Source of the DNA: Candidatus Cloacimonadales bacterium
Lineage (GTDB): Bacteria; Cloacimonadota; Cloacimonadia; Cloacimonadales; JAIOQZ01
Length of the DNA: 64,000 nt
Assembly: GCA_963674825.1 (NCBI GenBank)
Contig: OY771587.1
Coordinates: 1,632,001 to 1,696,000 of the forward strand
Direction of reading: 5' to 3'
Positions 25,329 through 49,100 of this stretch are shown here, in pieces; position 1 is the stretch's first letter, and the number at the start of each line of letters is the position of its first letter. Both the position numbers and the translations under genes were made by a program. A model generated the notes under the pieces. That model was not told the DNA's origin, did not search any database, and worked only from the letters and a program-made list of their open reading frames with translations.

Positions 25329-26663
25329 TCAAGGATTCTTGATTTCCTTGATCAGCAGCTCGATTTGAATACGAAATTTATTGTCTGAACGGAACTGGTT
25401 TTCGATCATTTTCTTGGCGTGAAGCACCGTTGTGTGGTCCTTGCGCTTGTAATATTCCGCGATTTCCTTCAGCGATGCCTGTGGAATCAACAGATTGGAA
25501 AGATACATCGCCACCTGTCTCGGGAAGGCGATGTGCTTCTTACGCGTTTTATCGAAGAGCTGTGTAGGTGTGACGTTGTACATGTCGCACACCTTCTGCA
25601 TGATCGTATCGAGGTTGATATCGCGCACTTTTTCCGAGATCAGGTCGGAGAGGATCTCCTTGGCCAGATCGGGGTCGATATCTTCGGTATTGAGGTTGTT
25701 GTAAGATGCGTACGCAAGGATGCGGATCAACGATCCTTCCAGCGCGCGTACGTTGCTGGATACATATTCCGCGATGAAACCGATGACATCTTCGCGCAGG
25801 AAGATATCTTCGTTTTCGGCCTTTTTGCTCAGGATTGCCGCACGAGTCTCGAAATCGGGGCTCTTGAGGTCGGCCATCAGTCCCCACTCGAAACGGGTTA
25901 CAAGGCGTTTTTCGAGGTCATGGATATCCTTGAGCGGTCTGTCGCTGGTGATAACAATCTGCTTTTTATTCTCGTAGAGAGCGTTGAAGGTGTGGAAGAA
26001 AGTTTCCTGGGTACTTTCCTTACCGGCCAGGAAGTGGACGTCGTCCACCAGAAGAACATCGACATTACGGAACTTATTTCGGAACTCGGTCATGTTCTTG
26101 GTCTTCAGTGCTTCGATCATTTCGTTGGTGAATTCTTCGGCTGTTGTGTAATATACGTATCTGGAGCTCTGCTCTTCACCCAGAAAATTGCCGATAGCCT
26201 GCATGAGATGGGTTTTTCCCATACCCGATTCCCCATATATGAATAGTGGGTTGTAAGCGGTTCCTGGTGATTCGGCGACGGCCATTGAGGCAGAGTGTGC
26301 AAAGTTGTTGCTCTTACCCACTACGAATTGGTCGAAGGTGTATTTAGGGTTGAGCTTGCCGCTGCTCTGCTGTTGATTACCATTGAGCTTGAAGCTGCCG
26401 TTTTTCTGCTTCTTGAGCGGGTAATTGGTAAAGCGAACCTTATATTCTTTTTTATAGAGGTTGTAGGAGATTTCTGACAATAGAACCGTGTAATTCTGAT
26501 TCAGGAAATCGGCGGTAAATTTTGTAGGCACCTGAACCAGAAGGATATTGTTGTCGATATCGATCAGTTTTGTGTCGCTGAACCAAGTTTTAAAACTTTT
26601 CGGGTTGATATGATCTTCCAATGTATTTAAGACATTTTCCCATATATCCTGATCTCTTTCCAT
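25329..26663 (-). CDS. dnaA: Chromosomal replication initiator DnaA
   Basis: LNPKYTFDQFVVG.SN, YNPLFIYG..G.GKTHL, LLVDD, FFHTFN, RF.WGL, NVR.LEG, RQVAMYL, DHTTV.H. Confidence 0.98.
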   Translation of the reverse strand: MERDQDIWENVLNTLEDHINPKSFKTWFSDTKLIDIDNNILLVQVPTKFTADFLNQNYTVLLSEISYNLYKKEYKVRFTNYPLKKQKNGSFKLNGNQQQSSGKLNPKYTFDQFVVGKSNNFAHSASMAVAESPGTAYNPLFIYGESGMGKTHLMQAIGNFLGEEQSSRYVYYTTAEEFTNEMIEALKTKNMTEFRNKFRNVDVLLVDDVHFLAGKESTQETFFHTFNALYENKKQIVITSDRPLKDIHDLEKRLVTRFEWGLMADLKSPDFETRAAILSKKAENEDIFLREDVIGFIAEYVSSNVRALEGSLIRILAYASYNNLNTEDIDPDLAKEILSDLISEKVRDINLDTIMQKVCDMYNVTPTQLFDKTRKKHIAFPRQVAMYLSNLLIPQASLKEIAEYYKRKDHTTVLHAKKMIENQFRSDNKFRIQIELLIKEIKNP

Positions 26664-26998: not shown

Positions 26999-27507
26999 GC
27001 ACGAGTCGTTTCAGACCCACACAACCTTTCAAGATTCTACATGACGAGATAATTTGTCAAGGCGCGTTTGTTTGATTTCTTCCATAGAAGAATCGAGACA
27101 AAATTGTTATAATATATTGAAATATATAAAATTATGTGAATTGGTAGTATTTTTGATTTTTTAGGATCATAAATTCTAATGTGATGAACCACATGGATCA
27201 ACCGATCTGTGAAGAATTCCTGTAAAAAAAATTTGGAAATGATGAATGGCATATTTTACGGACATGTAATGATCTATATATCAGTATGATAGGATTAATC
27301 TGGGGCATGAATACTCCTGTATATGTTGTTAGTTTCCTGAAATGATTGATGTTGTCGTGTCGACAGGTTTAATATTAACGAATATGAAAAAACAAAATAA
27401 ATAGATTAACTGAGTGTAGCGGAATAATGGCTATCGGGTTCAGCTTTTCAATTGACAGAAATTTCTGAACGAAAAGGATTGTGATACGAAAAAATAAGGA
27501 TACAAAA

Positions 27508-28833
27508 ATGTCGCCATCACATACAAGTAGATCAATAGAAATCGAGCATCCGGAAATCTTCAGAAGAAAGAGCAAGGTAAGCCTTGAGTCAATCAACCGG
27601 TTCGTCTTACTTGCATTTGCATTTAGCCCCATTATATCGATTGTTACGTGGGTATCGATTCAGATAAGTGGGAAGTTTTTATTCGCAACCATTATGATCG
27701 TATTGACCTTTATGAATATGTTGAATCCCAGGAAAAAAGGTAGTGGGTTAAAAAATTACTACTTCATTTTAGCGTTATTGATTGCATATCATCTTATCCT
27801 TGATATTGTTTACGGTCGAATATCCTTCGACAGAATCCAATTATTCGCATACAAGAACTGGGCTGTACAAACTCTTTGCGTTTTGTATCTTATTGATAAC
27901 ACGAAATTTAAAACAAAGAAAATACATTTATATGTCCGTTTCATGGTCATTGTTGCGATAATGGCCGTGGTTGTATCTTTTATTCAGATTAGGTTTGATA
28001 AGAATTTCCTCATTCAAAAGTATTACTATGAGGGACAATCAAATTACTCACTGGTTTCGGCTCAGTCGATCTATTCCTATATCGATAGGAATGCGATTGG
28101 ATTCGACTTTGTACCAATGATGGCTGCTTTAATAGGTTGGAGTGTTTTCTTTGGCAGGCAAAATCTGTATCTGATCAATGTTCTGATAGCCGGGTTCGTT
28201 TCGATGGCTTCTACAAGAAGGTACGTGATGTTGGCGGTCGTGGTCGCATTGTTTCAGTTTGTATTTATCAAGATGCATGCAAAAAAGAAGACATTATGGC
28301 TTATAGGTGTTGTATTTGGTGTATCGATTGTTATCATGCTTTTCTCATTTGTTTTTTCTGGTTCAGGATATTCGCTTGATAATTATTTACATAAAAGGAT
28401 TCTGTCAGAGTCTGCGATGTCTCGAATTGAGGCTTTTAGTTTGTTCAAAAAGCACTTCCCGCGAAACATCTGGCTGGGCACAGGTGGTGGACAGGATTTC
28501 GAATTGAAAACTGATATCCGTAGTGGATACACATCCCAGATTCATGTTGGGTACTTGTCATTCTTGTACCAGTATGGTATTTTTGGTGGAGTGCTATTCT
28601 TCATGTTTATCATTACGTTTCTAGTAAAATTGATTCGAGAGTCGAGTTATTCGAAATTCTATGGAGGATTGTTTGCTTTCATTGTTATCCTGGTAAATTA
28701 TGCAACATTGGTGCAGTTTTCATTACTATATACCGGTGTCGCATTCGGATTGATTCTGCACAAGTTCTTCTATGAGCAAAAGAAGCTCGAAGATGAACAG
28801 GCTCGGCTTCTATCAGTAGAAGTTGTCGAGTAA
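27508..28833 (+). CDS. O-antigen ligase/Wzy-like polytopic membrane protein
   Basis: About 11 hydrophobic segments, S..R, WLGTG, H.GYL..LYQYGIFG; visibly AT-rich; next to rfbA. Confidence 0.75.
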   Translation: MSPSHTSRSIEIEHPEIFRRKSKVSLESINRFVLLAFAFSPIISIVTWVSIQISGKFLFATIMIVLTFMNMLNPRKKGSGLKNYYFILALLIAYHLILDIVYGRISFDRIQLFAYKNWAVQTLCVLYLIDNTKFKTKKIHLYVRFMVIVAIMAVVVSFIQIRFDKNFLIQKYYYEGQSNYSLVSAQSIYSYIDRNAIGFDFVPMMAALIGWSVFFGRQNLYLINVLIAGFVSMASTRRYVMLAVVVALFQFVFIKMHAKKKTLWLIGVVFGVSIVIMLFSFVFSGSGYSLDNYLHKRILSESAMSRIEAFSLFKKHFPRNIWLGTGGGQDFELKTDIRSGYTSQIHVGYLSFLYQYGIFGGVLFFMFIITFLVKLIRESSYSKFYGGLFAFIVILVNYATLVQFSLLYTGVAFGLILHKFFYEQKKLEDEQARLLSVEVVE

Positions 28834-28887
28834 ATTCTATTGCTATACGTGATCAATGGTTATCCTTAGTCATTTTGGGAGGTACGT

Positions 28888-29769
28888 TTGAAAGGAATAA
28901 TACTTGCAGGGGGAAGCGGAACTCGTCTGTATCCAGCTACGAAAGCTGTAAGTAAGCAGCTTCTTCCCGTTCACGACAAACCCATGATCTACTATCCTCT
29001 GTCGGTGTTGATGCTTTCCAATATTCGTGATATCCTAATCATCTCAACTCCAGACGATTTGCCAATGTTCGAGAAGCTTCTAGGCGACGGAAGTGAATTC
29101 GGCTTACGATTAAGCTATAAAGAGCAACCACGCCCGGAGGGAATCGCCCAGGCATTCATTATCGGGAAAGAGTTTATCGGAGATGACGATGTGTGTCTTA
29201 TCCTCGGCGATAATATTTTCTACGGCGACAAGCTTAACCGTTATCTGACGAACGCGCTCAAGACTGTGGAGAACGACCGTAATGCGGTTGTGTTCGGCTA
29301 TTGGGTCAAAAACCCTCAGCGCTACGGCGTGGTTCACTTTGACGATGAGCAGAACGTGCTAGGGATCGAAGAGAAGCCAAAGGAGCCAAAATCGAACTAC
29401 GCGGTAGTAGGGCTCTATTTTTACCCTAACGATGTCGTGAAGGTGGCAAGCGAGATAAAGCCATCCATGCGAAACGAGCTGGAGATTACTGATGTCAACA
29501 AAGAGTATCTGGCCCAGAAGCGATTGCAGGTAGAGATCCTCGGTCGCGGTTATGCATGGCTTGATACCGGCACGCACGAATCTCTGGCAGATGCATCTGT
29601 GTTTGTGCGAGCATTCGAGGAGCGACAGGAGCTCAAGATTGGCTGCCCGGAAGAGATCGCGTTCAGGCAGAAATTCATCACTCGTGATCAGCTTCGAGCT
29701 CGGGCCGAGACAATGAAAAACAACCAGTACGGTCAATATCTGTATTCTCTACTCGAATGGATCAAATAG
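28888..29769 (+). CDS. rfbA: Glucose-1-phosphate thymidylyltransferase
   Basis: [50 protein letters not shown] start after GGAGG. Confidence 0.96.
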
Positions 29770-29786
29770 CAGAAAAGGAAAGAGGA

Positions 29787-30821
29787 ATGAAAGATATTCG
29801 ATTCGCCCTTATCGGATGCGGAAGAATCTCGAAGAACCACTTTGAATCGATCAGAAAAATAGACCACGGTGAGATTATTGCTTGTGCCGATATCATAGAA
29901 GAGAGAGCTAAAGAATCTGCTGAACGATACGAGATCAAAAGCTACTATAAAGACTATATTGAGATGCTGGATAAAGAGAAGCCGGATGCGGCGATTATCT
30001 GCACACCCAGCGGAATGCACCCGGAGATGGGTATTGAAGCGGCCAATCGCGGCATTCACGTAATCACGGAAAAACCAATGGCCATCCAGCTCGATGATGC
30101 AGATAATCTGGTGAAGGCTTGTGACCGTAACCACGTTCTGTTGTTCGTGGTGAAGCAAAATCGCCTTAATACGACCATGCAACTTCTCAAGTCCGCAATC
30201 GACAAGGGACGCTTCGGTCGCATCTTCATGGTGCAGTCGAATATCTTCTGGCAGAGACCGCAAGAGTACTACGATCTTGCTAAATGGCGTGGAACCTGGG
30301 AGTTTGATGGTGGTGCGTTCATGAATCAGGCGAGCCATTACGTCGATGCCCTCCACTGGCTGATCGGTGAAGTGGATCATGTCCTTGCCGAAACTGCGAC
30401 CTTGGCACGCAGAATCGAGACGGAAGATACCGGATCTGCAATACTCAAATTCCGCAGCGGTGTGATTGGCACAATTAATGTAACCATGCTGACCTACCCA
30501 AAGAACTTCGAGGGATCGGTTATCGTGCTCGGTGAGAAGGGAACAGTCAAAATCGGTGGAATCGCGGTCAACAAGATCGAGAAATGGGAGTTCGATTCAT
30601 ACGATGACGACGACCGTATCGTGTCCGAATCGAATTACCAGCCGCCGAACATCTATGGATTCGGCCATATTCCGTACTACAAGAACGTTATCGACACGCT
30701 ACTCGGAAACACGGCTCCGCATACGGACGGTAGAGAAGGCAGGAAATCGCTCGAAATTATCCATGCGATATATCGCTCGGCCAAGACCGGTCAAAAGGTA
30801 GCACTACCGCTCGATTATTGA
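29787..30821 (+). CDS. Gfo/Idh/MocA oxidoreductase, WbpB/WlbA-like UDP-sugar 3-dehydrogenase
   Basis: IGCGRI, TPSG.H, EKPMA, VVKQNR, W.RPQEYY, WRGTWEFDGGAFMNQASHY.D. Confidence 0.88.
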   Translation: MKDIRFALIGCGRISKNHFESIRKIDHGEIIACADIIEERAKESAERYEIKSYYKDYIEMLDKEKPDAAIICTPSGMHPEMGIEAANRGIHVITEKPMAIQLDDADNLVKACDRNHVLLFVVKQNRLNTTMQLLKSAIDKGRFGRIFMVQSNIFWQRPQEYYDLAKWRGTWEFDGGAFMNQASHYVDALHWLIGEVDHVLAETATLARRIETEDTGSAILKFRSGVIGTINVTMLTYPKNFEGSVIVLGEKGTVKIGGIAVNKIEKWEFDSYDDDDRIVSESNYQPPNIYGFGHIPYYKNVIDTLLGNTAPHTDGREGRKSLEIIHAIYRSAKTGQKVALPLDY

Positions 30822-30901: not shown

Positions 30902-30978
30902 GGGTGATTAGCTCAGTTGGTTAGAGTACTTCGTTGACATCGAAGGGGTCACTAGTTCGAATCTAGTATCACCCACCA
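30902..30978 (+). tRNA. tRNA-Val (GAC)
   Basis: Acceptor GGGTGAT/ATCACCC-A-CCA; anticodon arm CTTCG-TTGACAT-CGAAG; TTCGAAT T-loop. Confidence 0.96.
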
Positions 30979-31008: not shown

Positions 31009-31085
31009 GGGTGATTAGCACAGCTGGTTAGCGCGCATCGTTCACATCGATGAGGTCACTGGTTCGAATCCAGTATCACCCACCA
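31009..31085 (+). tRNA. tRNA-Val (CAC)
   Basis: Acceptor GGGTGAT/ATCACCC-A-CCA; anticodon arm CATCG-TTCACAT-CGATG. Confidence 0.95.
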
Positions 31086-31369
31086 CTTAAACCAAACAAC
31101 TTATTTATTTGTAATAAGATACTAGTGTAAAGTTGTAAAGTGACTGTGTAAAGTGACACCTTCATTTTCCACTTTGTGACAGCATGATTTCCTTACTTCC
31201 GAAATGGAAGTGACAGGAAATGTTCTTAACTCCCGCACCATCAATCACATTCATGCAGTCACTTTCTCAAGTTGCAAGTGACGGCAGTCTTTCCATTGAA
31301 TCGTCCTGATTTTTTTTGCCGTTGTCAGTTAACTTAGTTTCCGGGCTGCAGGTAATCTGGCTCAACCAA

Positions 31370-31465
31370 GCCAGTTCCATCCTGAAGGGAAAGTAGTGGT
31401 TTTCCAGCATGATCGCGTTTCTCGCTTTGATCGGCGAAGTGCGGTTTATTTCAAGCCTATCCTGT
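31370..31465 (-). pseudogene. Possible IS3-family transposase remnant
   Basis: Translates QDRLE...RNAIMLENHYFP, resembling the QGKIER...KN.I.LENYY.P segment of integrase-core transposases. Confidence 0.3.
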
Positions 31466-31583: not shown

Positions 31584-34082
31584 ATGAGAAACAATGAAAA
31601 ATGGTTTCATAATCAGGTAAAGCAATATCAACAGGATCGAGAGAATTACATCCAATTGGCTGATGTGCTTCAGCAGATATTATTCCGAGCATCTGAGATA
31701 TATTCACCACTTGCCATCATACAGACAAGACCGAAGTCAGTATCGAGTTTCGCTGAAAAATGTCTGAGAAAAGCGGATAAATATATCGACCCGGTTCACC
31801 AGCTTACAGACCTCTGTGGTGGTCGAATTGTTTGCCACACCAATACGCAGGTGCAGCGCCTTTGCAGGTTCATCCTTGAAGAGTTTATTGTAGACAATGC
31901 CAATAGTCTGGATGCAGGTTCACGTTTGCGAAATGAGGAGTTCGGATATTTGTCGGTCCATTACATCGTTGAAATAGATAACGAGAAGATTCTTGGGATT
32001 GGAGTTCCGAAGTCGTGCCGTAATCTCAAAGCGGAGATACAGATACGCACGCTGCTGCAACACACCTGGGCGGATATAATCCATGACCTGATTTACAAGA
32101 CACCGATTCAGGTTCCTTCCCAATTTATCCGAGAGTCCGCGCGGTTGGCAGCGATTCTGGAAAAGGCTGATGAGTCCTTCGAGAACTTCATGAACACCCT
32201 CTTGGAATACAAAAACAGTGCGCCCGAGATGTTCACGCAAAAACAGTTCGAAACCGAGAAACAAACGCTTGATTTGATTCAGTCAAGCGAGCCGGATCCG
32301 AAGAAGAAAGAAGAAATTGCTATCAGGCAAGCGCGGCTTTATCGATCCACCGATCAATTTCATGAAGTAGCGACGATTCTCCGAAATCATATCGATTTCA
32401 GCAAAAAACCACCGGATGAAGCGCTCTACTATCTTGCAGAAGCCCTGTTGATGCTCAAAGAGGATTCTCAATATTCTGAAGGACAATCCCAATTGAGAAG
32501 GATCATCGAAGAACATCCGCTTACATCCGAAAATATTGATAATCTGCGTCTGATGAACCCTGATGATTTCAGGATTCTGACAAAAGCATGTCATCTCTTT
32601 GGAATTTCATATATTGGAAAGGATCGGGATGAAGCTCTACCGTTGTTGAGAGAAGCATTCCATCTCGCTCCGGATAATCCCCGCTATGTTGTCGATTACA
32701 TTGAATGCTGTCTGCTCCTTGGCGATTCGGATTGTTGTGAACTGCTCAAGCCAATGATCCTAAATGCGATTGAGCACTGTACAACCAATCTGGATATACA
32801 TAAAGCCCGGATCGAGTTATATCTGTTGAAAGGTCGGTTGCTGCTCTATCTGAATCAGAAAGAAAACGCGATGGCATCGTATATGAAAGCCATTGATGTC
32901 ATCCGTAAACAGAAAACATCCAAAGCGATAAGGCTGTTGATGAAGGAGAAAAAGTCACTCGAAGTCCTGCAGAAACAAACGAATGATATTCGATGGAAGT
33001 GGGCTGTCGATCTGCTGAATCTGGCATACATGATAATCCATCGAAACAAGACTGCCAGCACAAGAACTTATATCATTGCAGGGAAATCCGATTTTCTGGA
33101 AGACGAGACCAGAAAAATGCTTGTTGATTCGTTTTACCGTGGCTTTCGATGGGGAAATCCGAAAATTATCAGCGGTGGTACCAACACCGGTATTCCCGGA
33201 TGTATCGGGGATGCTGTTCTGAAAATCAAAGAGGGTAGTCGCAAATTGATCAGGTTACATGGATATATCCACGCCAATATGCCGGATCAACTCAAGCATG
33301 AGGGCTACGATGAATGGATTGTTACGGACGACGACAAATTTTCCTTCGGGGAGGTGCTGGCATATTGGAATGATCTGTTACCATACGGTGATATCAAATT
33401 GATCGGCTATGGCGGTGGGGCGATCTCTGGTTTGGAATACCGCCTGGCGTTAGCTATGGGGGCGAAAGTAGCGTTGGTTCGAGGTTCGTACGGTGCTGCC
33501 GAGGAAGTGTATCACAGCCCGGAATGGGAAAAGCACGAAGGCTTGATTGTGTTGCCTGAAGATGCGGATACAATCATAGCATTTATCAATGATCGATACG
33601 ATAATCCAATGGAAGAAAACGATTTTGAAGGCATCGCTCGTGAAATACACAATCATTATCTCGAAGAAGAAATCAAAAATGGGAAGACAGCATCGGACTC
33701 GATGGCTCCTTGGGAACTATTACCGGAAACATATAAGGCTTCCAACCGTAATCAAGCATCATTCTGGATGTTCAATCTACTATCAAACGGCTTCCAACTT
33801 CGCGGTGGGCAGCCTTCGGAAATTGTCCCGATTACCTTCACTAGGGATGAGGTCGAGCGGCTATCGAAGCTGGAGCATGGGCGATGGACGTTGAATCGAT
33901 TAAATGATGGCTGGACGTATTCACGCGAGAAGGATCCACGAAAGAAGAGAACACCCTGGTTGGCAGGCTGGAACGAATTGCCCGAAGAGATCAGGGAATA
34001 CGACAGAGAAGCGGTTCGCCGCATACCGGTGCTGCTTGCCAGCCTTGGATTTGAAATTATCAGATTAGGAGATGAAACATGA
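31584..34082 (+). CDS. RelA/SpoT-type nucleotide pyrophosphokinase fused to TPR, SLOG-like and tandem RyR domains
   Basis: RPKSVSSFAEK, TDLCGGRIV, GYLSVHY, EIQIRT..QH.WA...H..IYK; helical repeats; ISGGTNTG and GYGGGAISGLEY; AREIHNHY...PW..LPE..K.SN and LEHGRW.....GW.Y....D.......L..W..LPE..REYD. Confidence 0.85.
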   Translation: MRNNEKWFHNQVKQYQQDRENYIQLADVLQQILFRASEIYSPLAIIQTRPKSVSSFAEKCLRKADKYIDPVHQLTDLCGGRIVCHTNTQVQRLCRFILEEFIVDNANSLDAGSRLRNEEFGYLSVHYIVEIDNEKILGIGVPKSCRNLKAEIQIRTLLQHTWADIIHDLIYKTPIQVPSQFIRESARLAAILEKADESFENFMNTLLEYKNSAPEMFTQKQFETEKQTLDLIQSSEPDPKKKEEIAIRQARLYRSTDQFHEVATILRNHIDFSKKPPDEALYYLAEALLMLKEDSQYSEGQSQLRRIIEEHPLTSENIDNLRLMNPDDFRILTKACHLFGISYIGKDRDEALPLLREAFHLAPDNPRYVVDYIECCLLLGDSDCCELLKPMILNAIEHCTTNLDIHKARIELYLLKGRLLLYLNQKENAMASYMKAIDVIRKQKTSKAIRLLMKEKKSLEVLQKQTNDIRWKWAVDLLNLAYMIIHRNKTASTRTYIIAGKSDFLEDETRKMLVDSFYRGFRWGNPKIISGGTNTGIPGCIGDAVLKIKEGSRKLIRLHGYIHANMPDQLKHEGYDEWIVTDDDKFSFGEVLAYWNDLLPYGDIKLIGYGGGAISGLEYRLALAMGAKVALVRGSYGAAEEVYHSPEWEKHEGLIVLPEDADTIIAFINDRYDNPMEENDFEGIAREIHNHYLEEEIKNGKTASDSMAPWELLPETYKASNRNQASFWMFNLLSNGFQLRGGQPSEIVPITFTRDEVERLSKLEHGRWTLNRLNDGWTYSREKDPRKKRTPWLAGWNELPEEIREYDREAVRRIPVLLASLGFEIIRLGDET

Positions 34083-34498
34083 ATAACAGACCAATCGTAG
34101 CGGTTCGGGTAATCCTGCGTAATGAAGACAACTCGATTCTCCTGCTGAAACGTGCTCAAACAAGCTATAGCGAAGGTGCGTGGTGTCTGCCGGGCGGAAA
34201 AGTTGATTACGGACAAACGCTCGAAGAAGCATGCGCCAACGAACTGAAGGAAGAAACCGGCCTGGACATCGGCGAGATCGAGTTGGTTGCCTGTCAGGAC
34301 AGTTTACCCGAGAAGGATGGGGATCCACACTTTTTGAACCTCTATTTCGAAGCGGAATACACAGGCACGATCACCTTGAACAACGAATCCTCGGCATATC
34401 AATGGGTTTCCAGCAACGAACTCGACAATTATCAAATCGTATTCGGAAACCGCGACATCATTGAGCAGATGTTCGAACAAGATACATCGGGAGATTAG
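34079..34498 (+). CDS. Nudix hydrolase
   Basis: ILLLKR...W.LPGG.V..G.....A...ELKEETGL; ATGA overlap with the upstream gene. Confidence 0.9.
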   Translation: MNNRPIVAVRVILRNEDNSILLLKRAQTSYSEGAWCLPGGKVDYGQTLEEACANELKEETGLDIGEIELVACQDSLPEKDGDPHFLNLYFEAEYTGTITLNNESSAYQWVSSNELDNYQIVFGNRDIIEQMFEQDTSGD

Positions 34499-34499
34499 C

Positions 34500-37400
34500 A
34501 TGGCGGAGAATAATCGAGAAATGCGAGTTTTTATCTCATCAACATTCCGGGATATGATCAATGAGCGTGATCATCTGGTCAAGCAAGCGTTTCCGAAGCT
34601 TCGGCAACAATGCGAGGCACGAGGCGTTATCTGGGGTGAGGTTGACCTCCGCTGGGGAATAACCAGCGAGCAGCAGGCCGAAGGGAAGGTGTTGCCGATC
34701 TGCCTGGAAGAAGTCGAACGCTGCCGACCATTCTTTATTGGAATCCTGGGTGAACGCTATGGATGGGTGCCATTGGAAATCGATGAAGATTTGATCCGAA
34801 AAGAGACTTGGCTTGCGGAGCACAGAGAACGCTCGGTTACAGAACTCGAGATCCTCCACGGCGTGCTGAACCACAAGGAGATGCAGGGCAAGGCGTTCTT
34901 CTATTTTCGCGATTCTGCCTGGCTGGATTCGATCTCTGATGAAGAAAGGTATAAATACCTCGAAGGTCCTACGGATCACGAGATTGAAACTCTTGGTATA
35001 GATCGAGCGGAACAACGGGCACAGGAAAGACGGATCAAGCTTCAGGAGCTGAAGAAGAAGCTGGAGGATTCTCCCGGTACGGTTACGCGCATATTTACAT
35101 CGCCTGACGAGTTAGTGGAAATGGTCACGGAGGACATGAGTCGGATCATCGACGAGCTTTTCCCGAAAGATCAGACTGTAAATCCATTCGAGATGGAGCG
35201 TATCGCTCATCACGCGGTGTCTGTGCAGAAATCAACTGTATATGTCAAGCGTCCCCTCTATTTCGAGCAAATGTATCGATTCATTGATGGAGATGAATCC
35301 TGCCTTCTGATATCAGGAGCTTCCGGTACCGGAAAGACTTCGATGGTTGCAAACTGGACCGAAGAATATCGTCAAACCTATCCCGACGATAACGTGTTTA
35401 TCCATTTTATCGGTTCCACCCCGCTCTCGAGCGATATTGAGAATCTTCTGTGGCGATTATTGGGAGATTTGAAAGACTGGTATAACATTCCCGAAGGTAT
35501 TCCACAGAATCCTGCAGAATACGCGCAGACGCTCGCAAAATGGCTAAAGCAGATATCAGATCAACAAAGGTGCGTCATTATTCTGGATTCGCTGAATCAA
35601 CAGGAAGACAAACCCGGCGTATCGAGCCTGACATGGCTACCGGTAGAGTTTCCTTCCAACGTGCGGCTGATCGTTACGAGCCTGGAAGGACCAGCATTCA
35701 CCGAACTGCTGAAGCGGAATGCACAGCAAATGGAGATCATGCCCTTCAAAGCGGATAGCAAGAAGCTGCTGATCGATAGTTACCTGCGCTGGTGTCACAA
35801 GAGTCTGGATTCCGAATCGGTTCAGCGGCTGATTGAATCAGATCATACAGACAACCCACTATATCTAAAACTTCTGTTGGAGGAATTGCGACTCGAAGGT
35901 AAGTTCGAGTCCCTCACCGAGCAGCTTACAGAATTCCTCAAAACGGAATCGATACCCCAATTGATGCTGCTTATTCTCGATCGACTGGAGCGTGATTACA
36001 TTGGCACAGACCACAACCTGGTACGCGATGCGTTTAGCTATCTTTGGGCATCCCGAACAGGGCTTTCGGAAGTGGAGCTACTCGATCTTCTCGGAAAAGA
36101 TGGACAACCGCTTGCATCGGGTATCTGGTCGCCTCTATCCTATGCCTCACGTCATCTGATCTCGATGAACTCCGGTAGACTTGTTATAACGCACAACTAT
36201 TTCAGGCAGGCAATCGAAGAGAAATATCTGACCGATTTCGAGGAACAGCGTCGGTATCGTCTCTTGCTGGCAGACTATTTCGGCAAGACGACGGTTACCA
36301 GATGGATGATGGAAACTCCCTGGCAATACGCCAAAGCCGGAGAGTGGATGATGCTGCGCGACCTACTCCTTCAAGACAACTTCCTATTCAAGGCGTGTAA
36401 ACAGATCGAATTCGAGTACTATGCCTATTGGGTGCAGATTGAGAAAAACACCAACATAACATTTCTCGAGTCGCTTGAAAAGTACATCGAAACACCGGAG
36501 CAGTTCGAAGCTCAAACCCTCTGGCAGATCGCTGGAATCCTTCACTATAAGATGGAAACAAAGAAGAGCATTAAGCTTTGGGCTTATCTATACCATTCGA
36601 TGAAAGACAGTCCAGACCGATTCAGGTATCTAGAAACGATCTTGAATTACTCATCAACGCTGAGCAGTGGAAATTCGGAGCAAATCAAGTTCTCATTAGA
36701 ACTCATGGATGAAGGCATGGCCCTTGCGAAAGAGCTTGGATTGGAAAATCGATATTATAGCTTGCTCATGAATAAATCGCTCGTGTTTGATCGATTGGGA
36801 CGTATCGATGAAAGCATTGAAATGAAACACGAATGTGAGAAGTATTTCAGGCAAAGTGGTCACAAAGAAGGTCTGCAAGCAACTCTGGCGAATATCATGA
36901 GCGTATATTTCTGGCGGGGGGATTATGATAAGGCTATCATATACGGCAAAGAATCACGGAAACTCAGTATCGAAACAGGAAACAAGTGGGCGGTCGTGAA
37001 TCTTGATAATTCTCTTGGTACGATCATGATTTATGCTAACAAACTGGAAGAAGCCGAAGCCACTCTCAATGAAGCGCTTGAGACTGCTCGAGAAATTGGG
37101 GACGATTATCATATTCAGATGATCCAGCAAACACGTTCCATGTTATTCTGTAATCTTGAAAGGCTGGAAGAAGCGCTCGAAGCAAACCGGGAATCGAAAG
37201 AGGTATGTGAGCGGATCCAGTTTTTGCAAGGTCTTATGAGCGCGTACTGCAACGAAGGCTCAATATTATTGTCATGTGAGAGGTTTGAAGAATCTCTTCA
37301 ATCAAGCTTCAAAGCGATAGAGTATTCAGATATTGCCGATCCGGATGGCTGCCGTTGTGTGTCATTCGGAAATATCGCCGCAGCCTTCATTCGAAAGGGG

Positions 37401-37640
37401 GATCTCGACCAAGGAGAAGAAGCTCTCGCCAGGTTCAGACAACTTGCAATCGAATCACAAAAACCGGACAGTCTTGCCTGGGCGTATATGCATCTGGCAG
37501 AACTACACTTTGCCAGAAAACAGTATCAGGAAGCACTAGAGGCAATCGAAGAGGGTGTAGAACATTGTAGTCGGTATGGACTTGAATTGATCATTGATCA
37601 GAGCGAGATATTGAAGGATCAAATCATTGAAGAAATGTAA
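34500..37640 (+). CDS. DUF4062 - STAND/NACHT-like NTPase - TPR protein
   Basis: RVFISSTFRDM..ER..L...DLRWG...CL.E...C.PFFIGILGERYG, SVTELE; Walker A GASGTGKT; Walker B VIILD; NPLYL; C-terminal TPRs. Confidence 0.88.
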   Translation: MAENNREMRVFISSTFRDMINERDHLVKQAFPKLRQQCEARGVIWGEVDLRWGITSEQQAEGKVLPICLEEVERCRPFFIGILGERYGWVPLEIDEDLIRKETWLAEHRERSVTELEILHGVLNHKEMQGKAFFYFRDSAWLDSISDEERYKYLEGPTDHEIETLGIDRAEQRAQERRIKLQELKKKLEDSPGTVTRIFTSPDELVEMVTEDMSRIIDELFPKDQTVNPFEMERIAHHAVSVQKSTVYVKRPLYFEQMYRFIDGDESCLLISGASGTGKTSMVANWTEEYRQTYPDDNVFIHFIGSTPLSSDIENLLWRLLGDLKDWYNIPEGIPQNPAEYAQTLAKWLKQISDQQRCVIILDSLNQQEDKPGVSSLTWLPVEFPSNVRLIVTSLEGPAFTELLKRNAQQMEIMPFKADSKKLLIDSYLRWCHKSLDSESVQRLIESDHTDNPLYLKLLLEELRLEGKFESLTEQLTEFLKTESIPQLMLLILDRLERDYIGTDHNLVRDAFSYLWASRTGLSEVELLDLLGKDGQPLASGIWSPLSYASRHLISMNSGRLVITHNYFRQAIEEKYLTDFEEQRRYRLLLADYFGKTTVTRWMMETPWQYAKAGEWMMLRDLLLQDNFLFKACKQIEFEYYAYWVQIEKNTNITFLESLEKYIETPEQFEAQTLWQIAGILHYKMETKKSIKLWAYLYHSMKDSPDRFRYLETILNYSSTLSSGNSEQIKFSLELMDEGMALAKELGLENRYYSLLMNKSLVFDRLGRIDESIEMKHECEKYFRQSGHKEGLQATLANIMSVYFWRGDYDKAIIYGKESRKLSIETGNKWAVVNLDNSLGTIMIYANKLEEAEATLNEALETAREIGDDYHIQMIQQTRSMLFCNLERLEEALEANRESKEVCERIQFLQGLMSAYCNEGSILLSCERFEESLQSSFKAIEYSDIADPDGCRCVSFGNIAAAFIRKGDLDQGEEALARFRQLAIESQKPDSLAWAYMHLAELHFARKQYQEALEAIEEGVEHCSRYGLELIIDQSEILKDQIIEEM

Positions 37641-37830
37641 ATACAATCTACCGTGCTTGTATAGCAATTCGACATGTCAAGACAGAGACTACTGAATTGA
37701 ACCGATATGCGCAACCAGTTCCTAAGCTAAACAGATAGAGCATATTACAGAAGAGGTGAGAGCCGCCCGTCAAACAAACACCTGTGAGATCGCTAAATCG
37801 TTTTTGCAGGATGGAAAGAAGGGTGTCAAC

Positions 37831-37920
37831 TTACAACTTCAACGCGTCGTCGTGATCCTTGAATGTTCGCTCCGGCCCCAACTCATGCTTCAGAATCCCG
37901 ATGATTCTTGCTTCGACTTT
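37831..37920 (-). pseudogene. IS3-family transposase C-terminal remnant
   Basis: Translates EARIIGILKHELGPERTFKDHDDALKL*, resembling AER.NGILK.E.GL...F in IS3-type transposases. Confidence 0.5.
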
Positions 37921-41791: not shown

Positions 41792-42045
41792 AGGAATAAA
41801 CCTTTAGAATCAAGACAGTTGACATCAGTATTGCTTCGGAGCTTCATTTTGTCACATTTAAGATTAGGCCAGCCACATGCTCTTTTTGCAGTAAACGACA
41901 GGGGTGATTCTTCTGGCGCAATCCATCTCACAGTTATTTTTAGAAACACACACACTTATCTATAAGATAGTCTAATACCGTCCTTGCACGAAGTCAATTA
42001 AAATTACAGTGTCAACCTCAACTAGCTGAATACCAGTAAAGGCGA

Positions 42046-42206
42046 CATGTCTCTTCTGCCGATAACAGCAGTCTGGTGACGAACGGCCCATGGAGAAGCT
42101 TGGGAAGATGAGCGACAACAGCGCGAATGCTCCCATCATGCTCAAGAAAATGCAGTACGACCCAGTCAAGAAGCAGGTATTGCTCAAGCCGTTAGAAAGC
42201 TGTTGA
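42046..42206 (+). pseudogene. Degraded IS91-like (Y2) transposase fragment
   Basis: Frameshifted pieces HVSSADNS / GDERPMEKLGK...APIMLKKMQYDPVKKQVLLK resemble HSGFS.DN...D...ERL.RY..RAP.SL.K..Y....QV. Confidence 0.4.
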
Positions 42207-42793: not shown

Positions 42794-43148
42794 GCTAAAT
42801 GAATCTTGTTGTTTCGTCTCTGCGGATCCATGCTTTGTTGGTAATGCAAAGCAAGCAGCGTCAAATCATTAATGATCAGAAGATAGAAACGCTTTTTACA
42901 GAGTTGAAAGTTCACATAAGTCCGCAAGCAGAAGCGACAGTAAACATCCTTGTTTAGCGTCCTCTCTATCATATAATAACAATCCCTCTTCCAAGTTGAT
43001 AATGACGGTCGTTTCCCATGATTCTATTCTGATTATACGGCAAATACTTACACATCCCAAATTAGTCTGAGTTCTACATGGATTCTTGATCATATCGGAA
43101 CGAAATATGCATATTTTGGTAGGTAACTACTTCATAAGGGGTTCTGCG

Positions 43149-46100
43149 ATGAAAAAGTCCATGTTGTCAGTGTTTCTGTTATTTATATTTCTTACATTCC
43201 TTGAAGCAGCTCCTGTTCTACAGAGCGACGCAGATATCGTTGCGGAGAACTGGAGCAAGCACTGGAGCGAATTGCGCAACAGTGAAATAAACGTTCGATC
43301 TTCAGAAACTATTGGGACACAACTATATCTGTATCACTTGGATCCAGCCGGATTCCTTTTGATTTCAGCTGATGATAACCTTGAGCCGATTCTGGCTTAC
43401 GATTTTACAACCACTGCCTCTGAGACAAAGCCAGACAACTTTTTAAGCTGGCTGGATGTGTATCAGGAAGAGTGCGACTATGTTCGAAGCCATGAAATCG
43501 ATGACACGCGTTGTAATCAACTCTGGTCTGAACTGTTGACAGACGACCTCTCCCGCTACCAGAACACTCGCAATGTATCCCCGATGATTTGGTCGCAATG
43601 GGGCGAAGGCGACGATTGGAATGATGCCTGTCCCGATGATCCGGATGGCCCTGGCGGAAATGCTTATGCCGGTAGCCATGCTGTCGCCATGGCAATGTTA
43701 ATGAAATACTGGAATCATCCTGCGCAGGGTGAAGGACAAAATAGCTATTATCTTCCTGAATACGGTGCTGTCGAAGCAGTATTTGATACGACCCACTACG
43801 GCTGGACGCATATGCCGAACTCATTTAGCACCAACTGGACAGAAAACTTGATCTTCCACTGCGGTGTTGCGACATTTATGGACTACAGTCCAACATCTTC
43901 AACCACATCGATTAACGCGGTAGCTCAGGCGATGGTCGATCACTTCCGTTACAGCTCAGAAATGGATCTCCTGGCCAGGTCGGACTACGACGAAACAGTT
44001 TGGGAAGGAATGGTGCGAACCGAGCTGGAAAATGGAAGACCGCTGCTCTACCAGGGCGAAGGCACAGCCTTGCACGCCCACTTGCTGGATGGCTATCAGA
44101 ATACCGATTTCTTCCATTTCAACTGGGGTAACGAAGGGCAGTACAACGGCTACTTCCAGTTGAGCGCTATTACGCCATCTACGGCCAACTATACCTCGAA
44201 TCAGAAAGCCTTGTTCAATGTGCAGCCCAGTCTTGGGCCAGATACAATCGACGAGAGCTTCGAAAATGACTGGAATACATTTAACTGGGAATTCGCCGGG
44301 CAATCGGAATGGCAAATCGCAACAGACGAACACTTTTATGGCATCAAATCAGCTAAATCCGGTGATATCAACCACAACCAGACATCAGAGATTTTCCAAT
44401 CCTGGAATGTATTGGAAGATGGTCCCATCACGTTCTGGTGCAGGGTCTCCAGTGAAGACAACGGTAATAACGATTATGATCGACTGGAATTTTGGATCGA
44501 CGGAGTCGAAGCAGATCGATGGGGCGGCGAGCGTGACTGGGAGCAAATGTCGTACGACATCACTGCCGGCGTACATGAGTTCCGCTGGATATACCGAAAA
44601 GACGGTAGCCTTGTCTCTGGGCAGGACTGCGCGTGGATTGATGCGATCGACTTCCCGGATGGCGCTACGCCGTTGAACGCACCTCAGAACTTCACAGCAA
44701 GCATCGTGAATGATGACTCCGTTCTCATGACGTGGGAAGCACCGCTTATCCGCAACCTTCTCGGCTATCGCATCTTCAGGAATAATGTCGAGATAACGAC
44801 AATCCTGAATCCGAATACCCTTCAATTCATCGACCTCAACCTGCCCAACGGATCGTATTCGTACTACGCCAGAGCAGTTTATGATTCCGGCGTGTCTGAT
44901 CCTACGATCACCCATGTCATCAACATCGAGGTACTCTATCCACCCACAGCTCTCGTGGCATCGGTGTCGAATTTCGACGATGTGCTGCTTGCCTGGAACA
45001 TGCCAGCAACGCAGCAGGCACGGCGAACGCCTATTAATACCCGTAGCCTGATGGGCTATCGCATTTACCGCGACAACACCCTGATTGATTCTGTAAACAG
45101 CCAGACAACTTTACAGTACGCCGATAATGATCTGCCTGAAGGAACACACGAATATCAGGTATCGGCAATCTATTCATCCGGTTATTCAGAGCTGTCCAAC
45201 GTCGCCGTAGCAGCCATCGGCGTTCCCTGGCCACCCTCAGAGCTGACGGCGCAGGTACAGAATTTCAACGAAGTTTTCCTGGATTGGACAGCGCCTCCGC
45301 AGACATCGGAAACGCTTACAGGTTACAAGATTTATCGTGGTCTGGACCTTGTGCATGAAATGACGGACATCACCAGCACCAGCTACACCGAACTCGATCT
45401 GCCTAATGGTACTCATGTGTATCATGTTACTGCAATCTATGGAGAAGTTGAGTCTGGTCCATCGAACACAGCAGTGGCCACGATTGAAGTACCCTATCCT
45501 CCCCAAAACCTTATTGCAGATGTCGCAGAAGACGACGTGACGCTGGATTGGGATGCCCCAGCCACTGGATCGCGCAATCTCACTGCCTATTACGTCTATC
45601 GAAATAACAGCCCGATCGCCACGATCTGGAATACGAATGTGACATCATATTTCGACCCGATGCTGGCGAATGGATTCTACGCATATAAGGTCATAGCCGT
45701 TTACGGTGATGTATATTCGGAACCTTCGAACATCGTGAATATTGAAATGGATATACCATATCCGCCATCCAACCTATCAGCACAGATTGAGAACTTGAAC
45801 GATATCGTCCTGAACTGGGATCAACCGCCTGTTCAGGGGGGATTGCGCTCGTTTCTCGGATATCACGTCGTGCGTAACGGTGAAAATCATGCACTGGTTA
45901 CGGATTTCAACCAGTTGACCTGGACCGACGAGAATGTTGACAACGGTGTCTACGAATACTTCGTTTACGCTGAATATAACGCCGGGAATTCGGAATCCAC
46001 CAACGATGTCGAAGTTACGGTGGAAGTGCTGTACCCGCCGCAGAATCCCTCTTATACAATCGATGATGACGACGTCGTTCTCACCTGGGACTTGCCGGCT

Positions 46101-49100
46101 ACCGGCGGTGGCCTCACTCGTGACCTGCTGGGCTACACCATCTACCGTGATGATATCTTGATCCAGACAATCAACGATCCTGCCGTTCTTACCTGGACGG
46201 ATTTGAATCTTGCCAACGCTACCTACACGTATTACCTGCAAGCAACGTACACCTCCGGTGTCTCAGCTCCAACCGATAACCTTGATGTTATGGTTGAAGT
46301 GTTCTATCCAGCTTCAAACCTTGTTGGAGAGATTATCAATGAGGACGATGTTGCGCTGACATGGTCTCCTGCATTGAACTCCGGCGGTCTTCGCATGTTG
46401 CAGGGCTATCGCGTGTTCCGGAATGATATCGCGATAACCGATGTCACCCCCGCAGACACGACATGGCTTGATTCTACGCTTCCCAATGGCGATTACATCT
46501 ACTACGTGAAAGCACTTTACGAAAATGGGCTTTCAGCTGAAACTAATCACGTACCGATTCACATCGAAGTGATGTATCCAGCACGACAACTCACCGCCTC
46601 TGTAACAGGTGATGATGTCAACCTGGCCTGGCTTGAGCCACTCACATCGGGCGGTCTTTCAAGAGACCTGCTCGGATACAGGATCTACCGGGATTCAGAT
46701 GAGATCGCGGTTATCAACGATCCGGCTCAAGTAGCGTTCATGGATATGAACCTGGACAACGGATCTTACAGTTACACGGTAAGAGCGGAATATGCTGTTG
46801 GCTTGTCTGAACCTTCCAACACAGCGCTCGCATCTATCGAGGTGCTGTATCCGCCCACAAACCTCACTGCTATTGTTACAAACGATACAGTCAGCTTAAA
46901 CTGGAATATACCGGACAATGGTCCCACGCGTAACTTGCTGGGCTACACGATCATCCGGAACGGAAGCGTATTGCTGCAAATAGCAGATCCCGCGACCGTT
47001 GGTTACGAGGATACTGGTCTGGCGAACGGCGAATACTCCTACGAGGTTGTTGCCGATTACTCAACAGGGCAATCTGCGTCTGAGGGGCCTGTAACAGCAA
47101 CTGTTGAGGTTCTGTACGCTCCCAGAAACCTTGGCTGTTCACTCGAAAATTACTACAATGCCGTGCTTACTTGGGATCCTCCGCTCAATCAGGGGGGGCT
47201 GACTAGAGTGATGAATGGCTACCAAGTGTTCAGGGATAGTGTCCTCATCGCCGATGTAACGGATGTGAACTATACCGATAACGCCCTGCCTGACGGCTCG
47301 TATGATTATACGGTGAAAGCCGTTTACACATCAGGCGTGTCGCAGGCCTCCAATACCGTCAATGCTATCATCGAATACCCCTACGCTCCAAGCGGATTGA
47401 GTGCGGCGGTCAGTCAGGACACTGTTTCCCTGGTCTGGACAGCGCCCAGCAGCAATACAGTCTTGGGGTACACCATTTACCGTGATGGAGTTTCAATTGC
47501 CGATATCAACGACTCGGCTATCCTGAATTTCAATGACACAGGCCTTGCTAATGGTAGTTATTCCTACTACGTGATTGCCCGGTACAACGTTGATGATTCA
47601 GTTCCCTCAAACACAGTCACCGCTACGGTCGAGGTGCTTTATCCGCCGCAGAATCTTGAAGCATCCGTCATGCAGGACGAAGTGACACTTTCGTGGGAGC
47701 TTCCTGCCGTGCAGGGTGGACTGACCCGTGATCTGCTGGGCTACAAGGTCTATCGCGATGGTAATCTGATAGAGGAAATAACCGGATCCCTGACATACAC
47801 GGATATTGATCTCGCAAACGGCGCTTATGACTACGAAGTGAGTGCTGTTTATACAACCGGTGAATCGCAGATGTCTAACCTCGTTACCGCTACGGTTGAG
47901 GTGCTTTATCCACCGCAGAATCTTACATATGCGGTCACTCAGGATGAAGTAACACTCACATGGCAGCTTCCGGCCGTGCAGGGCGGCTTGACCCGCGATC
48001 TGCTGGGCTACAAGGTCTATCGTGACGGTGTTCTGATTGAAGAGGTAAGCGGATCCCTGACATACACGGATATCGACCTCGCAAACGGCGCATACGACTA
48101 CGAAGTGAGTGCTGTTTATACAACCGGCGAATCGCAGATGTCCAATCTCGTCACCGCTACGGTCGAGGTGCTTTATCCACCGCAGAATCTTGAAGCATCC
48201 GTCATGCAGGACGAAGTAACACTCACATGGCAGCTTCCGGCCGTGCAGGGCGGCTTGACCCGTGATCTGCTGGGTTACAAGGTCTATCGTGACGGTGTTT
48301 TGATTGAGGAGATAACCGGAGTCCTGACGTACACAGACGTTAATCTAGCCAACGGCGCATACGACTACGAAGTGAGTGCTGTTTATACAACCGGTGAATC
48401 GCAGATGTCTAACCTCGTTACCGCTACGGTTGAGGTGCTTTATCCGCCGCAGAATCTTGTTGCAGAAGTTGCTCAAGATGAAGTGACACTCTCATGGCAG
48501 CTTCCTGCTGTGCAGGGTGGACTGACCCGCGATCTGCTGGGTTACAAGGTCTATCGCGATGGTGTGGAAATCACCGAAACCAACGATCTCAACTATCTCG
48601 ATATCGACCTCGCCAACGGCGTATACGACTACGAAGTGAGTGCTGTTTATACAACCGGTGAATCGCAGATGTCCAATCTTGTTACAGCAACCGTTGAAGT
48701 GCTTTATCCGCCGCAGAATCTTGAAGCATCCGTCATGCAAGATGAAGTAACACTCACATGGCAACTTCCTGCTGTGCAGGGTGGATTGACCCGCGATCTG
48801 CTGGGTTACAAGGTCTATCGTGACGGTGTAGAAATCAACGAAACCAACGATCTCAACTATCTAGATATCGATCTCGCCAATGGCGCATATGACTACGAAG
48901 TGAGTGCTGTTTATACAACCGGTGAATCGCAGATGTCCAATCTTGTTACAGCAACCGTTGAAGTGCTTTATCCACCGCAGAATCTTGAAGCATCCGTCAT
49001 GCAAGATGAAGTGACACTAACATGGCAGCTTCCTGCTGTGCAGGGCGGACTGACCCGCGATCTGCTGGGCTACAAGGTCTATCGTGACGGTGTTTTGATT

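Follow-up and report, generated by a model that had tools for sequence, protein, structure and literature searches.

An operon headed by a synthetase fusion gene

The window, i.e., the whole stretch of 64,000 nucleotides analyzed here (contig OY771587.1 of a Candidatus Cloacimonadales bacterium), harbors an operon of three genes located on the plus strand. The first gene (P0001, 31584..34082) encodes a protein of 832 amino acids in which a RelA/SpoT synthetase domain, a tetratricopeptide repeat (TPR) solenoid, a SLOG domain, and a RyR domain are joined in this order. It is followed by a gene coding for a Nudix hydrolase of 139 amino acids (34079..34498; Pfam NUDIX, E 1.3e-24), whose start overlaps the stop codon of P0001 (ATGA), and then by an NLR-like gene (34500..37640) coding for a DUF4062-NACHT-TPR protein of 1046 amino acids from the ATG at 34500 (Pfam DUF4062, E 3e-14, NACHT/AAA, and TPR). 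A preliminary description of the first gene did not contain these two partners, which are the ones giving the fusion a putative mechanism. The fusion represents a real, widespread, and uncharacterized effector architecture and a probable variant of TIR-type nucleotide signaling, lying outside type I Thoeris, RelP/RelQ, and the long RSH proteins.

The Pfam scan of the 832-amino-acid protein revealed RelA_SpoT at residues 48-173 (E 3.9e-16), RyR at residues 757-825 (E 1.5e-13), and weak TPR matches at residues 279-440. As the preliminary description had stated, HD, TGS, and ACT domains are absent (none by Pfam at E ≤ 0.1), and TPR, SLOG, and RyR domains stand in their place in the AlphaFold model, which was built from a 103-sequence alignment (pLDDT 93.7, pTM 0.90) and compared with 48,161 solved chains in the VIA structure search. 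The view that the protein is neither a long RSH nor a plain small alarmone synthetase also agrees with its length and with its score against the NCBIfam YjbM model (NF053588; 49.7 bits, cut-off 320). At least 158 homologues were retrieved at E ≤ 0.001, and the 120 listed are mostly full length (about 30-40% identity), so that the four-domain fusion is not due to chance and is confirmed. Among the best 150 representatives of the clade, all four domains are present in 105, only RyR is lacking in 16, one is a synthetase-TPR-TIR protein, and 28 are shorter, many of them being probably truncated; this synthetase clade is tied to the synthetase-TPR-SLOG-RyR architecture.

The synthetase domain (residues 1-212; 31584..32219) was delimited through Pfam, a RelQ alignment, conservation, and the fold match to RelP: residues 4-208 match RelP (6ewz) with Z 17.9 and a root-mean-square deviation (rmsd) of 2.8 over 188 aligned residues (VIA), and RelP/RelQ structures in general are matched at Z 17-18. 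When the synthetase profile is compared with solved structures, RelP and RelQ are the closest (E 3e-21 to 1e-13), CapRel (3e-5), long Rel (2e-3), and FaRel2 (0.025) being more distant. The motifs recognized earlier are intact and lie where they had been placed: R49-x-K51...S55...K59 (31728), D76LCGGR, G121YLSVH126, and E151IQIRT (32034). According to the available part of a RelP study (PMC5794853), K80, S84, K88, R91, D107, Y151, E174, and H190 of that enzyme contact ATP, Mg, and the acceptor; mapped through the RelQ alignment and the spacing, they correspond, respectively, to K51, S55, K59, R62, D76, Y122, E151, and H167. The residues R49, K51, K59, D76, Y122, H126, E151, Q153, and H167 are invariant in 78/78 family sequences, S55 is kept in 76 and R62 in 69 of them, and the catalytic residues are, on the basis of this alignment, intact.

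In RelP and RelQ, the His of Syn4 is preceded by a Glu (E189 and E154, respectively), which we take to be a guanine contact, a role that the literature passages checked did not confirm. This position is I166 here and is occupied by Ser (32), Gly (13), Ala (12), Leu (8), or Val (4) among the 78 sequences; the WA-x-x-EH motif of RelP/RelQ reads WADxxHD, with no Glu before the His. Since the Glu is replaced family-wide by a small or aliphatic residue, the product should not be assumed to be ppGpp. Apart from this position and from its regulatory domains, which add 620 residues, the protein resembles RelP and RelQ, the closest solved synthetases, in the ATP- and Mg-binding residues and the G-loop Tyr.

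Other forms of the synthetase gene can be seen in the family. P0041 carries two synthetase domains, and an archaeal member (L061:1466-4648) ends in a KaiC-like ATPase. P0174, P0194, P0256, and P0188 share an N-terminal extension of about 130 amino acids (residues 1-140) that has no Pfam match and occupies the position of the Nudix domain in the fusions described below. In three loci (L038, L044, and L077), the gene is found in two open reading frames (ORFs), which might reflect either a real split or an assembly frameshift.

The putative ligand-binding domains

The TPR-like region noticed after the synthetase corresponds to a solenoid (residues 216-488; 32229..33047) indicated by the weak Pfam hits, the model, and the VIA matches of residues 211-486 to TPR solenoids. 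It is the least conserved part of the protein (mean 19% identity to relatives).

The SLOG domain (residues 491-672; 33054..33599) was assigned by fold match and family profiles. SLOG folds were not listed by Foldseek on the whole model; the VIA search found them, with TM1055 (1rcu) at Z 18.7 (rmsd 2.5, 160 aligned), TRPM2 (8sr7) at Z 16.8, and the ThsA SLOG domain (7uxs) at Z 13.2. The middle domain thus models as the SLOG Rossmannoid fold on which the preliminary description had staked its reading beforehand. The glycine motifs reported there are S530GGTNTG (33171) and G608YGGGAISGLEY (33405); the conserved positions are G500, S530GGTNTG, W595, G611, and E618, the domain contains glycine loops and a GxGxxxE-type motif, and 102/103 sequences retain the LOG-type Glu E618. 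The window protein remains below the LSDAT_prok cut-off (PF18171; 15.9 vs 25.4 bits), several homologues exceed it, and 67 of the 75 aligned family SLOG domains match this profile at E ≤ 0.01. The best match of the family SLOG profile among PDB sequences is the Nematostella TRPM2, a weak one (E 0.021, with ribosomal L30e noise at 0.26), and the GGTNTG loop is common to the latter and the window protein; judging from these profiles, the domain belongs to the LSDAT type associated with TRPM. The cleft of the TRPM2 SLOG (MHR1/2) is described as binding ADP-ribose in the part of PMC6759353 available, and in type I Thoeris, the SLOG domain of ThsA is reported to bind 3' cyclic ADP-ribose (3'cADPR), activating the enzyme fused to it (10.64898/2025.12.03.692087, in part).

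The RyR region (33615..34061) is composed of two repeats, at residues 678-742 and 752-826 (676-742 and 750-828 when aligned to each other), the first of which is degenerate; Pfam detects the second one only (PF02026, 51.2 bits against a cut-off of 27.4). Since hhalign aligns one repeat to the other (probability 98.1) and the C-terminus matches Repeat12 of RyR3 (9ls7; Foldseek, E 1.5e-5), they form one Repeat12-type domain; both repeats of the preliminary description are present, but they do not represent two domains. Phage RyR-domain proteins bind or hydrolyze 2'/3'cADPR, according to the available portions of two studies (PMC13232231; 10.64898/2026.06.04.730250), and their pocket residues, H75/W78/D117 of RyDEP and H129/W132/K147/D171 of RyR Tad, align without gaps to H765/W768/K783/D807. 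Among 65 family RyR domains, H765 is kept in 64, W768 in 63, K783 in 64 (as Lys or Arg), and D807 in 63. A phage search made with the RyR region only returned 11 records. The title of entry 9ls7 states that the mammalian Repeat12 binds ATP analogues. The homologies of the SLOG and RyR domains lend good support to the idea that the C-terminal domains sense a nucleotide, and would narrow the ligand to the ADP-ribose type.

The same RyR module is joined to unrelated outputs. In 19 ORFs near the synthetase gene (e.g., L002:6624-8495, L025:10990-12729, and L027:10685-12442), it follows two predicted transmembrane helices and a TrkA_N/RCK domain; these channel-like proteins mostly retain the pocket His/Trp/Asp and are candidate nucleotide-gated channels. 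In 11 further ORFs of about 900 amino acids (e.g., L003:5880-8486, L059:5853-8495, and L085:6801-9557), a C-terminal RyR follows a weakly PfkB-like N-terminus and an AAA ATPase.

Distribution of the family and its partner genes

A scan of the GTDB genomes confirmed at least 608 relatives, the best 77 of which were used for the analysis of the loci, their domains being counted with local profiles. These 77 loci span many bacterial phyla and archaea, and a quick tree of the synthetase mixes phyla and archaea. Synthetase and SLOG are present in 77/77 loci, while RyR is missing in 10, 7 of which have at least 4.7 kb of downstream DNA; SLOG is the constant sensor and RyR is dispensable. A full-length homologue of 830 amino acids is also annotated in the fungus Aspergillus varians (P0113, KAL4778615.1; 32-kb contig); it forms a single-member cluster, pointing to transfer or contamination.

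A Nudix gene is found within 8 kb in 43/77 loci, on the same strand in 42 and within 700 bp in 33. The two genes are fused in 4 of the 120 listed homologues and in 4 of the 150 best representatives, with the Nudix domain at the N-terminus (P0069, P0076, P0106, P0107, P0233, P0253, and P0258) or at the C-terminus (P0239). An HD hydrolase is present in nine loci, in seven of which it lies on the same strand in the adjacent upstream slot; these HD neighbors carry RSH hydrolase motifs, and the HD profile matches the long Rel of the host (E 6.7e-14). Considering the same strand and a distance of 3 kb, one of the two hydrolases occurs in 46/77 loci (Nudix only in 39, HD only in 7) and both together in none. 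This replacement of Nudix by HD suggests that Nudix may do the job of an alarmone hydrolase, and a Nudix enzyme of Thermus is known to degrade ppGpp (PMC3153485, in part). The Nudix enzyme is likely to be a resetting or detoxifying enzyme. The family Nudix profile finds its best match in 3grn, an uncharacterized "MutT related protein" (E 2e-35 vs 6e-21 for the next), a match that points to no particular substrate; the PDB entry itself may belong to a synthetase-Nudix system.

A TIR or DUF4062 domain is encoded within 8 kb in 47/77 loci, and in 33 of the 48 that are flanked on either side by 5 kb or more; DUF4062 is on the same strand in 25/27 cases, and a STAND protein is present in 30/77. The expected frequency is about 2%, since 20 of the 77-locus genomes, picked for their long contigs, contain 46 DUF4062 and 93 TIR_2 Pfam matches (139) in 122.5 Mb (about 0.018 per 16 kb); the enrichment is approximate, because the background profiles differ from the locus profiles and such genes cluster, but it is large. 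One clade member, P0241, is fused to TIR_2 (E 1.1e-15). The motif S-x-T-x-x-E is kept in 25 of 32 neighboring DUF4062 hits and, in the window protein, both S112VTELE117 and the Walker A GASGTGKT are intact; E117 would be the catalytic Glu by TIR topology. DUF4062 is described as a TIR-like NADase family yielding ADP-ribose (10.64898/2026.05.01.722283, in part), and the DUF4062-NACHT-TPR protein is likely to act as both sensor and signal maker. Other genes recur in the surroundings as well: a ClpB-like AAA gene (about 765 amino acids) lies near the synthetase in eight loci (L025, L036, L041, L050, L055, L063, L065, and L076), with a YbjN-like gene in four.

The host genome (99.6% complete) contains one copy of the operon, a single RyR domain, and a long Rel encoded separately. 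The occurrence of the latter led to the rejection of a housekeeping stringent factor, and that of a sole RyR domain to the rejection of an adaptor that would connect the synthetase with a channel through homotypic RyR-RyR pairing, which this host could not require. Full-length homologues are patchy, being found in 2/40 relatives. Within the 41 genomes of the order, which are kin rather than independent samples, RyR occurs in four, in each case adjoining a DUF4062-STAND protein of more than 1000 amino acids; three of these RyR genes are of the synthetase type and one encodes an AAA-RyR protein, which suggests an effector swap around a shared receptor. In the genome carrying the latter (G008), an AAA-RyR and a TIR gene replace the synthetase next to DUF4062-STAND.

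A putative relay from NAD+ to an alarmone

The arrangement described above might constitute a Thoeris-like relay: an ADP-ribose-type signal would turn the alarmone synthetase on, and a hydrolase would reset it; an even chance is assigned to this reading. The STAND protein would oligomerize on a trigger, most likely infection and possibly another stress, and its DUF4062 domain would cleave NAD+ to ADP-ribose or to a cyclic isomer. This molecule would bind the constant SLOG pocket and probably the optional RyR pocket, and the binding would be passed through the TPR solenoid, relieving the inhibition of the synthetase, an autoinhibition already supposed in the preliminary description. The released enzyme would next produce an alarmone of the (p)ppNpp type, presumably (p)ppGpp and not (p)ppApp or a modified tRNA, and growth would be slowed as long as the Nudix enzyme has not cleared it. 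The relay builds on the domain anatomy, the intact motifs, the operon structure, and the recurrence of the partners observed in the genomes, and it borrows from published relatives the NADase activity that DUF4062 may possess and the ligands that SLOG and RyR may bind.

Among the closest known counterparts is type I Thoeris (ThsB TIR plus ThsA SIR2-SLOG), where an enzyme effector fused to SLOG likewise lies beside a TIR-like gene. With regard to Thoeris in the broad sense, a DUF4062-STAND gene adjoins a putative ligand-gated effector here, and a signal may pass between the two. The effector, however, is a RelA/SpoT synthetase instead of SIR2, with additional TPR and RyR domains; the putative signal maker belongs to the DUF4062- or TIR-STAND NLRs, in place of a small ThsB; and a hydrolase gene is included. 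TRPM2 (MHR1/2 SLOG plus NUDT9-H Nudix) shares the LSDAT SLOG subfamily, the GGTNTG loop, and the pairing of SLOG with Nudix, but its output is a pore and not an enzyme, and the binding of ADP-ribose would be extended to the window protein by homology only. As for the RyR domain, phage RyDEP and RyR Tad and the mammalian RyR Repeat12 possess the same domain with an aligned His/Trp/Lys/Asp pocket (PMC13232231; 10.64898/2026.06.04.730250, both in part); the domain is here host-encoded and fused to an effector, and not a free sponge or glycosidase.

Several observations weigh against this relay, in whole or in part. The His that binds phosphate in the phage RyR proteins (H100/H154) is replaced by T790 in the window protein and by Ser (41) or Asn (16), with His retained in 6, among the 65 family RyR domains, so that the exact ligand may differ from that of the phage proteins. 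The characterized DUF4062 proteins are reported to kill by NAD+ depletion, producing linear ADP-ribose and no cyclic signal (10.64898/2026.05.01.722283, in part), and 15 of the 48 well-flanked loci are devoid of TIR and DUF4062 within 8 kb. In 31/77 loci, neither hydrolase is encoded on the same strand at a distance of up to 3 kb, and in one genome of the order (G004), the synthetase and STAND are kept with no adjacent Nudix. Moreover, all the HD cases fall inside one 13-row subclade of the quick tree; the swap with Nudix thus amounts to one or two events, and its Fisher p of 0.005 is an overstatement. The Nudix enzyme could equally degrade ADP-ribose, as the Nudix domain of TRPM2 suggests. 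Lastly, PADLOC gave single-domain matches to the three operon genes and no whole-system match, and only 3/120 other neighbors matched it at E ≤ 1e-25 (two σ54 activators and one patatin; 120 of 232 ORFs from 36 loci, with a strict cut-off, some probably spurious ORFs, and no control set), so that the loci are not typical defense islands; no full-length copy was found among 72,556 plasmids. Given the few PADLOC neighbors and the lack of plasmid copies, the trigger may be something other than phage.

An unlikely alternative, although the one that best survives, is that the wiring runs in reverse or as a feedback. The TPR would sense the trigger, the synthetase would make a pppNpp-type signal, and SLOG and RyR would bind the product or ATP, or else destroy the TIR signal (RyR as a glycosidase and SLOG as a LOG-like hydrolase), damping the response. 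The catalytic dyad of RyDEP (H75, D117) is indeed kept as H765/D807, as is the LOG-type Glu E618; the TPR is the fastest-changing part of the protein; RyR has been lost in the seven complete loci; and the ATP analogues bound by mammalian Repeat12 (9ls7) would fit as well. Nevertheless, the majority of the phage homologues sharing these residues are reported to bind without cutting (PMC13232231, in part), the presence of RyR on RCK channel-like and AAA outputs is the pattern of a receptor, and the layout of an enzyme plus SLOG matches that of ThsA.

It is rather improbable that the operon joins two independent co-travelling modules, with no signal between them: the synthetase and Nudix or HD would form a toxSAS-like toxin-antitoxin or abortive pair, acting through (p)ppApp or the pyrophosphorylation of tRNA, and DUF4062-STAND would be a stand-alone NAD-depleting protein of the Avs/Swarozyc kind. 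A small alarmone synthetase with an adjacent hydrolase is a known toxSAS layout (10.1101/2021.04.30.441581, in part), and DUF4062 proteins are described as defending as single genes (10.64898/2026.05.01.722283; 10.64898/2026.06.25.731849, both in part). The Ser/Gly/Ala/Leu found in the family at the presumed guanine-contact position would also be in line with it. This explanation does not account for the presence of two pockets of the ADP-ribose type on the synthetase, for the fusion of P0241 to TIR, for the fact that G004 has kept STAND but no adjacent Nudix, or for the location of all four RyR genes of the order beside DUF4062-STAND, and the synthetase is far nearer to RelP/RelQ than to CapRel or FaRel2. 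The resemblance to toxSAS (CapRel, FaRel, FaRel2, and Tas1) and to long RSH (Rel/RelA/SpoT) lies in a synthetase with a neighboring or N-terminally fused hydrolase, and in the Nudix-synthetase fusions, hydrolase, synthetase, and regulator follow one another as they do in long RSH; the window synthetase is distant in sequence from the solved toxSAS, and the protein lacks the domains proper of long RSH. The DUF4062 domain of the third gene adjoins NACHT as in TEP1 and NPHP3, with an intact acidic motif, which recalls Swarozyc/Evangelion and the TEP1/NWD1/NPHP3 DUF4062-NACHT proteins (10.64898/2026.05.01.722283; 10.64898/2026.06.25.731849, both in part); Swarozyc and Evangelion are described there as single NAD+-depleting genes, whereas this gene sits with a putative receptor-effector. 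Equally poor prospects are given to a metabolic sensor without a dedicated signal maker, in which SLOG and RyR would monitor the cellular levels of ADP-ribose, NAD+, or ATP and adjust a second source of ppGpp, helping slow-growing anaerobes and soil microbes to adapt to stress: the scarcity of defense neighbors, the RelQ-like enzyme, and the 15 loci without a TIR-like neighbor are in its favor, and it is contradicted by the strong TIR/DUF4062/STAND enrichment and by a distribution that is patchy within the genus and a tree mixing phyla and archaea, unlike those of housekeeping regulators.

A wider form of the Thoeris-like relay can be proposed only tentatively: the fusions would constitute an undescribed NLR-triggered family of bacteria and archaea in which an ADP-ribose signal from TIR or DUF4062, read by a TRPM2-type SLOG and a RyR Repeat12, switches on the synthetase, the RCK channel-like and AAA-ATPase proteins being alternative RyR-gated outputs. 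Such a family would be the first to connect a NAD-derived immune signal directly with (p)ppNpp, and it would set a prokaryotic precedent for the sensing of cADPR by RyR and TRPM2. Database names for the members are "RyR domain-containing protein" or refer to domains only. The SLOG families are said to have been defined by Burroughs et al. in 2015. The architecture was not found described in a full-text literature search, the coverage of which excluded that paper (NAR 43:10633) as well as the figure labels and supplementary tables of the Thoeris survey, in either of which it may be mentioned. In the latter, which comprises 29 types (types I-XI; Avs-type TIRs excluded), RyR, ppGpp, SpoT, Nudix, and synthetase are absent from the main text, as far as available (10.64898/2025.12.03.692087), and RyR is not mentioned in the accessible parts of PMC3153485, PMC7159879, PMC9503650, PMC12691689, and 10.64898/2026.06.25.731849. 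If the relay is correct, TIR/NAD-derived signals and ppGpp-type alarmones would be joined in one protein, and an alarmone synthetase would be added to the known effectors of TIR signals. The Nudix-synthetase fusions would be a case of convergence on the "long RSH" plan, built with another hydrolase. The protein might offer a soluble enzyme read-out for the ligands of the RyR Repeat12 and TRPM-type SLOG domains that hosts encode; the relay would also bear on the way cADPR acts on animal ryanodine receptors and explain the phage RyR-domain sponges.

The surroundings of the operon

Two tRNA-Val genes (30902-30978 and 31009-31085, plus strand) are located just upstream of the operon, whose upstream edge is marked by a 148-bp dispersed repeat (31147..31294, strand undefined) with two further copies in the host genome and several in genomes of the same genus. 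In G001, a 98% complete genome of the same genus, the position behind the tRNA-Val pair is taken by unrelated genes, which we read as phage-like; the operon occupies a variable slot behind tRNA-Val. The intergenic stretches 31296-31421, 37696-37841, and 42005-42133 also recur as dispersed repeats in same-genus genomes, and the first one is found every 2-6 kb in G003:C4:75855-97767, resembling a cassette array. An integron cassette or repeat-bounded element was considered and rejected, since the repeats of the relatives are not arrayed around the operon here, where only the 148-bp repeat lies upstream. A promoter scan was uninformative (3 sites vs 1.8 expected), and no RNA holder appeared among the sequencing runs.

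Further upstream, dnaA is encoded on the minus strand (25329-26663), and O-antigen ligase-like, nucleotidyltransferase, and oxidoreductase genes (27481-30821) precede the tRNAs, upstream of which the GC content falls to 0.37-0.38 at 26-29 kb. On the other side of the operon, positions 43086-52964 code for a protein of 3292 amino acids with a peptidase C10 domain, numerous fibronectin type III repeats, and, at its C-terminus, a Por-type sorting domain.

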